This document shows positions 58,190 through 59,887 of a stretch of DNA of 64,000 nt, one piece after another. The position numbers and the translations under genes are program-made. The notes below the pieces were generated by a model that had not been told where the DNA came from, searched no databases, and saw only the letters and a list, made by a program, of their open reading frames with translations. Position 1 is the stretch's first letter. Every line of letters starts with the position of its first letter. Where the stretch lies: contig CM000435.1 in the NCBI GenBank assembly GCA_000165345.1, positions 832,001-896,000 on the forward strand. Direction: 5' to 3'.

Positions 58190-59887
58190 ATGGGACCAAA
58201 ACAGAGGAAATCGCTCTCTTCGGTGTCTTCGCAGTCCTACTCAAATTCTCCTTGGAAAGCATTGACTAGAATAGAGCTATATCAGGTTCTTGATCAGTGT
58301 GATATTCCCGTTTCTTCTGAGAAGCTTTTAAAGGGAGAGCTTATTGAATTGCTTGAAGGCAATCTTGACGAAGAAGAATGCAGAAAGTGGCTAGAATACT
58401 ATGAAAAGCCACTCCCTAATTCAAACTTTGGTCTCAGAAAAAATGAACCATCTACCTCTAACATAAAAAAAGAAGCTGTAGTTAGAGAAAGAAAATCTGT
58501 ACCTGCATATATTGCTGTTGCCAATACAAATCCAGATGTTTTAAATTCTATCCAAGGTTCCCCATTAAATGAATTTAGTAGAAATAGAACTTTAAGAAGA
58601 CGGAATTCAATGTATTCAGATCACTCAGAAGGAGCAAAGGAAAGTTGTGAACAAAAAAATCTTGAATCTTTAAATGGACTTAAAAAAGACACGTTATCTG
58701 ATTATTTTGCAGCGAATAGTACTAAATTCTACAGTAAGGACAATTACTCAAATGAGGACATCTCAGGTGAAATGCATGCATCATCGAATGACAGGCCAGA
58801 AGCTCGAGCATACAAATCTTTAGGGCAGAGAATAATCGGCAAGACCAAAATTGCTTTGAAATCTATTAACTCAAAAATGATAATAATCCTTGTAGCTTTA
58901 TTTATATTCTTCGCCTTATACAACCACTACTACTACTTTTTCAATGAGCCAAATTTTTGTAACTCAAATATCTATGGTGAGAAAACGCTAAGTCCCTCAA
59001 ATTGTATTAAATGTCCGCCTAACGGACACTGCAAAGATGGAAATTTGAAGTGCAACACTCAATACAAAAAAGCAATGAAATATCTAAATAATAGATGGCA
59101 GATTATTTGTATATATGATAACGAGGCATTTGACCTCGCTGAAGAAATGCTCACATTTATTACAAATAAGCTTAGAAAGCTACGTGGTAATCGTGCATGT
59201 AGTGGGAATAGCCTATATGATGTATTTTTTCCTGATAAAAGAAAAAATAGTCAGATTTCTGATTTTGATAGATCTGTAGCTTTAAGTGAGAAGGAGATCA
59301 ATGATATCATACATCTTTCTTTCAACTACATTGAGCAAAGTACTGTTGAAAGCGCTATTTCAATAATGTGGAACTCAATTAAAACAGGAAATTCTTTAAC
59401 TAGGTATGGACTAAGAGTAGTTAAACACAAAGACCCCAACTTAAATTCAGATTCAACTTCTAAAAATAGTGATAATCAGTTTATTGAAGAAGGTAGCTTT
59501 ATTGAAGCTTTAGATTCCGAGACCTCACTTATTTGTGAAGCTAAATTATTTATTCAGAAATGGGTGATAATTTTAATTGGTATTATCTTCATATTTTTAC
59601 CATTATATTTCAGAATAAGAACAAGAAGAAGAAAGGCAGAATTAATCCGAAAAATTAAGGCTATAATTTGTAGGGAAAATAGAAAGGATACTACAACTGG
59701 TTTATTTGTAGGCCCCGACTCAGAAACTATATTGAGATTATTAAGTGTAGAGTTCCCTAAGTATAAGAAGATTCTAAATGAACAACTTGTGATAGAGTAT
59801 TGTGATGAACTTGAACATAATGATCCAAATATCCACAAAACCTTAATGTCTGAAAGTAAGCACCCATTCTATTGGTCTTCCTGTTGA
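58190..59887 (+). CDS. Inner-nuclear-membrane HeH/LEM-domain protein of the Src1/Heh2/MAN1/LEM2 family
   Basis: 565 aa. An N-terminal helix-extension-helix motif LTRIELYQVLDQCDIPVSSEKLLKGELIELLEG resembles the Src1/MAN1 HeH (…LKVAELRRIL..NNVDYPSNAKKNALVGLF). TM1 is IIILVALFIFFALYNHYYYF. The luminal Cys motif CIKCPPNGHCKDGNLKCNTQYKK resembles yeast Src1/Heh CIPCPPNGICYPYLKLKCKPDYK. TM2 is WVIILIGIIFIFLPLYF, followed by an ~90-aa basic C-terminal (MSC-like) domain. Confidence 0.7.
   Translation: MGPKQRKSLSSVSSQSYSNSPWKALTRIELYQVLDQCDIPVSSEKLLKGELIELLEGNLDEEECRKWLEYYEKPLPNSNFGLRKNEPSTSNIKKEAVVRERKSVPAYIAVANTNPDVLNSIQGSPLNEFSRNRTLRRRNSMYSDHSEGAKESCEQKNLESLNGLKKDTLSDYFAANSTKFYSKDNYSNEDISGEMHASSNDRPEARAYKSLGQRIIGKTKIALKSINSKMIIILVALFIFFALYNHYYYFFNEPNFCNSNIYGEKTLSPSNCIKCPPNGHCKDGNLKCNTQYKKAMKYLNNRWQIICIYDNEAFDLAEEMLTFITNKLRKLRGNRACSGNSLYDVFFPDKRKNSQISDFDRSVALSEKEINDIIHLSFNYIEQSTVESAISIMWNSIKTGNSLTRYGLRVVKHKDPNLNSDSTSKNSDNQFIEEGSFIEALDSETSLICEAKLFIQKWVIILIGIIFIFLPLYFRIRTRRRKAELIRKIKAIICRENRKDTTTGLFVGPDSETILRLLSVEFPKYKKILNEQLVIEYCDELEHNDPNIHKTLMSESKHPFYWSSC

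Follow-up and report, generated by a model that had tools for sequence, protein, structure and literature searches.

The proteins Src1/Heh1 and Heh2 of Saccharomyces cerevisiae and Lem2 and Man1 of Schizosaccharomyces pombe share one order of parts: an N-terminal HeH domain, a long disordered linker, a first transmembrane segment (TM1), a loop with a C-x2-C-P motif, a second transmembrane segment (TM2) and a winged helix. The fungal Src1/Heh/Lem2/Man1 proteins are about 660-830 residues long and carry characterized bipartite nuclear localization signals, and their HeH domains and tails are matched directly by Pfam HeH and by positions 250-337 of the Pfam MSC profile. Human LEMD2 (LEM2) and MAN1 (LEMD3) possess the same two-pass topology, luminal MSC core and winged helix after TM2, and additionally a true BAF-binding LEM domain and, in MAN1, an RNA-recognition motif (RRM). 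Here, we describe a gene in a 64,000-nucleotide stretch of DNA (GenBank assembly GCA_000165345.1, contig CM000435.1, positions 832,001 to 896,000; hereafter the window), whose 565-residue product is identical to Cryptosporidium parvum EAK90383.1 / QOY40712.1 (CPATCC_003597). As predicted from its sequence, it shows the fungal order and the topology, luminal core and winged helix of the human proteins, but it lacks the direct HeH and tail matches and an identified bipartite signal, as well as a LEM match.

Among alveolates, Lem2 and MicLem2 of Tetrahymena thermophila resemble the Cryptosporidium protein in their length of 500-600 residues, two TM helices, Pfam MSC, two N-terminal helices, the lack of a sequence-detectable canonical LEM domain and a host without lamins (PMC7285967). 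Their localization at the nuclear envelope is experimental, whereas the Cryptosporidium protein is known here from sequence alone. MSC is reported at the C-terminus of the Tetrahymena proteins (PMC7285967), whereas the Pfam match in Cryptosporidium ends at TM2. Koreny and Field reported that MSC proteins are widely distributed, that an N-terminal LEM-like domain occurs in fungi and many protists, and that both domains trace to the last eukaryotic common ancestor; the LEM domain itself is restricted to Holozoa (PMC5630835). A 2018 survey counted Heh2 and Src1 among the core nuclear-envelope proteins of all supergroups and found the combination of HeH and MSC outside opisthokonts only in Naegleria (PMC6240307). 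Conventional lamins are absent from apicomplexans (PMC11980560, for Plasmodium). In the literature, we found no paper that characterizes an apicomplexan Lem2/Src1/MSC/HeH member, mentions this gene, or gives a localization for it or for an apicomplexan homolog. The family assignment itself is nevertheless not new, as the C. hominis and C. meleagridis orthologs already carry the database name "Man1-Src1p-C-terminal domain" and the family is known as pan-eukaryotic. The novelty implied by the initial annotation of this DNA was thus overstated, given these names, the protist proteins combining MSC with a LEM-like domain (PMC5630835, PMC6240307) and the alveolate members localized in Tetrahymena (PMC7285967). 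Our additions are a cryptic HeH-like N-terminus, a myzozoan subfamily with a divergent predicted winged-helix tail, and acidic nucleoplasmic domains in Cryptosporidium.

We conclude, with a probability of roughly 80%, that the protein is the C. parvum ortholog of the Lem2/Src1(Heh1)/Heh2/MAN1 family, a two-pass membrane protein that most likely resides in the inner nuclear membrane. This assignment, which agrees with the family named in the initial annotation, follows from a match to Pfam MSC that exceeds the gathering score, from the architecture and predicted topology, and from a profile-profile chain that leads from the N-terminus to HeH domains. What the sequence analysis shows is membership via the luminal MSC core, together with the arrangement of domains and the predicted topology and folds. 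Pfam MSC (PF09402, Man1-Src1p C-terminal domain) matches the protein with an expect value (E) of 9e-14 and 52 bits, compared to a gathering score of 29.7, and the orthologs P0006 and P0009 reach ~36 bits. The match covers the luminal loop and TM2 and stops short of the C-terminal tail. The boundaries proposed initially proved exact from ATG to stop, and orthologs of nine further Cryptosporidium species or isolates align over the full length at identities from 96% down to 40%. Conservation within the genus is modular: majority fractions of 0.73-0.88 and many invariant columns characterize the N-terminal tip, the segment 24-76, the loop in its Cys-rich and helical parts, and the final ~90 residues, compared to 0.40-0.48 and no invariant column in residues 77-98, 115-226 and 413-432.

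No conserved block of the protein is longer than the loop, whose two subdomains have 31 invariant residues out of 90 and 20 out of 47. All eight of its cysteines (C257, C272, C275, C281, C288, C307, C337 and C449) are invariant in the genus. The luminal Cys motif CIKCPPNGHCKDGNLKCNTQYKK, which had been likened to a yeast string, is indeed present and is a real hallmark of the family, the yeast string as quoted being unverified: C-x2-C-P-x2-[GA]-x-C-x2-G-x-[LV]-x-C occurs in every true family match (e.g., CIPCPDHGICSNGELECDALY in P0045). These matches come from an exhaustive HMMER search of the genus profile against 1.84 billion representative proteins, which returned 40 matches. Apart from the two artifacts described next, 25 non-Cryptosporidium proteins were scanned; Pfam MSC was found at E<=0.01 in 24 of them, and several also contain Pfam HeH. 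Two of the matches, P0013 (1009 residues) and P0014 (2798 residues), were discarded as tandem-repeat false positives, their E of ~1e-9 being summed from 5-12 stretches of 2-10 bits; an apparent match of P0013 to the HeH-like region was rejected as the same artifact. PDB sequence searches with the full protein and the genus profile returned nothing relevant. Word-index searches with subfamily alignments, scoring the 8000 candidates that share most words, recovered nothing besides Cryptosporidium proteins or P0015 and overlooked rows of their own query, so a negative from them is no sign of absence.

The two TM segments appear in the hydropathy profile at residues ~229-246 and 458-474, with ~210 residues between them, in line with the ~200 stated initially, and AlphaFold2 predicts helices running through both. 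The 15 residues preceding TM1 carry +4/0 charges, with a net charge of 0 on its C-terminal side, and the 15 residues following TM2 carry +8/-1; the intervening 211 residues have a net charge of 0. By the positive-inside rule, these flanking charges predict a luminal loop and both termini on the cytosolic or nucleoplasmic side, which would place the Cys motif in the lumen and not in the cytosol. The best-supported model for the loop is a disulfide-rich domain of ~210 residues in the perinuclear lumen.

Cryptosporidium groups with a gregarine, Polyplicarium translucidae DN1918 (P0012), with a chromerid, Vitrella brassicaformis CEM06831.1 (P0050), and with the environmental proteins P0043, P0047, P0049, P0022, P0023 and P0025. 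Full-length members of this myzozoan subfamily all start with a domain of the pattern W-x2-L-T-V-x-E-L-[KR]-x-V-L ... K-x-Q-[LI]-[IV]-x-L-C-E, and the Cryptosporidium and other proteins share this domain, the luminal core and the tail motif G-P-x3-I ... C-x2-L-x3-[DN]-P ... P-F-Y-[WF]. The other members differ from Cryptosporidium by a direct Pfam HeH match and by basic N-domains in four of five; moreover, most of them contain a winged-helix insertion of 20-40 residues and a linker motif W-P-x-V-D-P-E-G, both missing in Cryptosporidium. As judged from these comparisons, the subfamily is divergent: HeH domain and luminal MSC core are retained, and the tail is unlike the classical MSC winged helix in sequence. 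Sources were looked up for 20 of the 37 non-Cryptosporidium matches, and the names obtained were a gregarine, Vitrella and a plant. Should there truly be no coccidian or haemosporidian protein among the 40 matches, Toxoplasma and Plasmodium may have lost the gene or altered it past recognition.

Several results at the two ends of the protein qualify the family assignment. At the N-terminus, Pfam detected no HeH, SAP or LEM domain at E<=10 in the full protein, in its isolated N-terminus or in seven Cryptosporidium N-terminal fragments, and a Cryptosporidium-only N-terminal profile found neither a HeH nor a SAP structure in the PDB. Aligned by hhalign to a Pfam-verified HeH set, the Cryptosporidium N-terminus scored 13.2, within the range of column-shuffled profiles. 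At the C-terminus, hhalign comparisons of Cryptosporidium or myzozoan tails with classical MSC tails gave probabilities below 1% and scores of 11.8-14.6, again in the shuffled range, and the myzozoan tail profile missed the MAN1 structure 2CH0, which a positive control with classical tails found at E=1.3e-8.

The tail is nevertheless predicted to fold into a winged helix immediately after TM2, composed of H1 (481-496), short strands, H2 (511-521), H3 (531-544) and a β-hairpin wing (548-551/560-563). A juxtamembrane helix, RIRTRRRKAELIRKIKAIICRENRK, extends from TM2 and becomes helix 1 of this fold. Across Myzozoa the tail is kept with a hhalign probability of 98.3% (E=1.4e-14). Only its predicted fold marks the tail as a winged helix, and no similarity in sequence to that of MSC/MAN1 (Pfam positions ~250-337) was detected. 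A search for a bridge between the two kinds of tail, made with hidden Markov models in both directions and with other tails, gave the plant protein P0044 as its sole match; it was rejected, as its 11.2 bits align helix 3 on helix 1 and vice versa and are not colinear. The tail had initially been described as basic and MSC-like, which holds for the charge of the 25-residue juxtamembrane helix (+8) but not for the core, which is acidic, and the Pfam MSC match lies on the loop and TM2 instead.

Both predicted nucleoplasmic domains of the C. parvum protein are acidic, the HeH-like region having a net charge of -6 and an isoelectric point (pI) of 4.4, and the winged-helix core (residues 500-565; positions 59687-59884) a net charge of -4 and a pI of 5.2. 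Most Cryptosporidium species likewise have an acidic core, with a pI of 5.0-6.5. The pI of the basic N-domains in four of five other myzozoans is 7.8-9.0 and that of the MAN1 fragment is 9.4. This acidity makes a model with direct binding to DNA less likely for the Cryptosporidium protein, and DNA tethering should not be taken for granted. The point is not conclusive, because some classical tails are acidic as well (P0024, pI 5.0; P0040, pI 4.3). Since both domains are acidic, partner proteins such as histones, an ESCRT-III-type partner (endosomal sorting complex required for transport) or a lineage-specific scaffold appear more likely ligands than DNA itself.

These features leave room for a possible, though doubtful, alternative, namely an MSC-family protein with repurposed nucleoplasmic domains, in which the tail would be a non-orthologous or diverged winged helix, the HeH-like domain, acidic in Cryptosporidium, would have lost its binding to DNA, and the whole would anchor a lineage-specific partner (a lamina substitute, histones, or spindle-pole/centrocone components). 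Such a history would fit a tail that is conserved in Myzozoa yet undetectable against classical tails and 2CH0 despite a working positive control, the acidity of both domains in Cryptosporidium compared to the basic N-domains of its relatives, and a conserved short motif in the linker. However, the same fold at the same place after TM2 has its simplest explanation in an ancestral MSC winged helix that diverged, the acidic classical tails make charge no clean separator of the classes, and the LEM2 winged helix is already known as a protein binder, of CHMP7 (cited in PMC8129912). More speculative still, there might be a distinct Lem2 subfamily of Myzozoa (apicomplexans and chromerids) whose winged helix diverged or was replaced, and in which acidification of the Cryptosporidium domains turned the protein into a tether for a lineage-specific protein partner (a lamina substitute, histones, or centrocone/ESCRT components) rather than for DNA.

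At the N-terminus, AlphaFold2 predicts a helix at residues 27-36, an extended loop of 11 residues, a helix at 48-58 and a third helix at 61-70, with a predicted local distance difference test (pLDDT) score of ~81. The first two correspond to the helix pair LTRIELYQVLDQCDIPVSSEKLLKGELIELLEG (residues 25-57) that had been proposed as HeH/LEM-like. The BAF-binding LEM domain proper (Pfam PF03020) matches neither the 565-residue protein nor the Cryptosporidium N-terminal fragments, which is expected since LEM is reported as restricted to Holozoa (PMC5630835). The HeH assignment derives from two significant profile-profile steps through myzozoan intermediates. First, the Cryptosporidium N-terminus aligns to the myzozoan N-termini over 55 columns with a probability of 96.5% (E=8.4e-10) and a score of 48, compared to at most 13.9 in 60 column shuffles. 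Second, the myzozoan N-termini align to verified HeH domains with a probability of 94.8% (E=4.8e-8) and a score of 39, compared to at most 14.6 in shuffles. The aligned columns span both HeH helices and the loop between them. Pfam HeH is matched by all five non-Cryptosporidium myzozoan N-terminal fragments (best E=2.9e-9), and the myzozoan subfamily profile finds the Tho1 SAP domain 1H1J at E=0.003. We conclude that the N-terminus is probably a divergent, cryptic domain of the HeH superfamily, established via intermediate sequences only. The helix pair of the initial annotation is thus retained as HeH through this chain, and its direct HeH, LEM or SAP identity is not; of the domains foreseen for the protein, MSC alone is found directly in Pfam.

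That the N-terminal helices instead form an unrelated, lineage-specific three-helix module with a chance likeness to HeH seems improbable to us. Every direct search with Cryptosporidium sequences was negative, and the third conserved helix and the W-x2-L-T motif are absent from the minimal 35-residue Pfam HeH model, as such a module would have it. Both steps of the chain nevertheless lie far above their shuffled controls and cover both helices along with the loop, the position at the N-terminal end of an MSC protein is the one expected for HeH, and each of the five relatives matches Pfam HeH.

Within the otherwise variable linker, the motif (G/E)-R-x-S-[VI]-P-[AS] has 8 of 16 residues invariant in the genus and appears as AGRFS[VI]PSDD in four other myzozoan relatives (P0043 at ~180, P0047 at ~116, P0049 at ~152 and P0022 at ~52). 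It fits the pattern [RK]-x-S-[ILV] of basophilic or Aurora-like phosphorylation sites. The linkers of P0047 (~150-170), P0049 (~225-245), P0023 (~18-36) and P0012 (~210-230) contain another motif, W-P-x-V-D-P-E-G-x-P-x2-W-x-I-R-D-P, and Cryptosporidium is without it. The N-terminal tip (residues 1-23) is a possible import signal. N-myristoylation of its MG start was dismissed, as the C. muris protein starts with MPPK.

Taken together, the HeH-like domain, the disordered linker of ~150 residues and the C-terminal winged helix would all face the nucleoplasm, and the two-pass protein would reside in the inner nuclear membrane. By analogy to the yeast, human, Dictyostelium and Tetrahymena members (PMC2528585, PMC3337167, PMC4810098, PMC7285967, PMC8129912), we infer this residence, the kind of binding partner, the cellular role and chromatin tethering: the protein probably joins the nuclear envelope to chromatin, or to proteins associated with chromatin, and probably participates in envelope remodeling during closed mitosis. 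A general two-pass protein of the endoplasmic reticulum or secretory pathway, acting through its disulfide-rich luminal domain without a dedicated role at the inner nuclear membrane, would suit the restriction of the direct above-threshold match to the loop and TM2, the loop being the longest conserved block, and a protein in which no classical basic nuclear localization signal was found beyond short basic clusters, but is very improbable, as all characterized family members, including those of the alveolate Tetrahymena, are at the nuclear envelope (PMC7285967, PMC4810098, PMC2528585), the HeH-like domain and winged helix are conserved as strongly as the loop, and the order of HeH, long disordered linker and TM segment matches the layout that supports inner-membrane import in Heh1 and Heh2 (PMC4569319).

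Very few nuclear-envelope components of apicomplexans have been defined, and the Lem2/Src1-type protein described here is a candidate inner-membrane marker for Cryptosporidium. It may also serve as a proximity-labeling bait for a lamina replacement and as an entry to envelope remodeling in closed mitosis. The positions of all features are collected in Table 1.

Table 1 Features of the Lem2/Src1-type gene, its product and its neighbors (positions are those of the window).
Feature	Residues	Positions	Strand	Basis
Complete single-exon gene, 565 residues plus stop	1-565	58190..59887	+	ATG-to-stop open reading frame; matches Cryptosporidium orthologs end to end
N-terminal tip, starts MGPKQRKS	1-23	58190..58258	+	10/23 residues invariant in genus
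HeH-like domain (putative)	24-76	58259..58417	+	AlphaFold2; profile-profile chain via intermediates
Linker, poorly conserved, predicted disordered	77-226	58418..58867	+	AlphaFold2 pLDDT <50
Short linker motif (E/G)R-x-SVPAY	99-114	58484..58531	+	Genus alignment; relatives
TM1 (core ~229-246)	227-250	58868..58939	+	Hydropathy; AlphaFold2
Luminal loop (predicted), β-hairpin and helical subdomains, 8 Cys	251-457	58940..59560	+	Hydropathy; AlphaFold2; genus alignment
Pfam MSC (PF09402) match, profile positions 46-247 of 337	266-484	58985..59641	+	Pfam, 52 bits
Family hallmark motif CIKCPPNGHCKDGNLKCNTQYKK	272-294	59003..59071	+	Genus alignment; family matches
TM2	458-474	59561..59611	+	Hydropathy
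Basic juxtamembrane helix RIRTRRRKAELIRKIKAIICRENRK, net +8	475-499	59612..59686	+	AlphaFold2; charge count
C-terminal winged helix (predicted)	481-565	59630..59884	+	Predicted fold; myzozoan conservation
Sec63 (DnaJ and Sec63 Brl)		51858-53741	-	Pfam
Ser/Thr protein kinase		55508-56581	-	Pfam
MMtag-domain protein		60205-60708	+	Pfam
DEAD-box helicase		62025-63212	+	Pfam

Unrelated housekeeping genes make up the genomic context, which gives no functional hint for the 565-residue protein. Four nearby open reading frames, all on the + strand, had no Pfam match at E<=0.001 (45990-50987, 54093-55466, 57090-57983 and 61275-61901); they encode 1665, 457, 297 and 208 residues, respectively, and the 1665-residue product is the largest unannotated one near the locus. 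The window has a G+C content of ~31%, and its long uninterrupted open reading frames are tightly packed.
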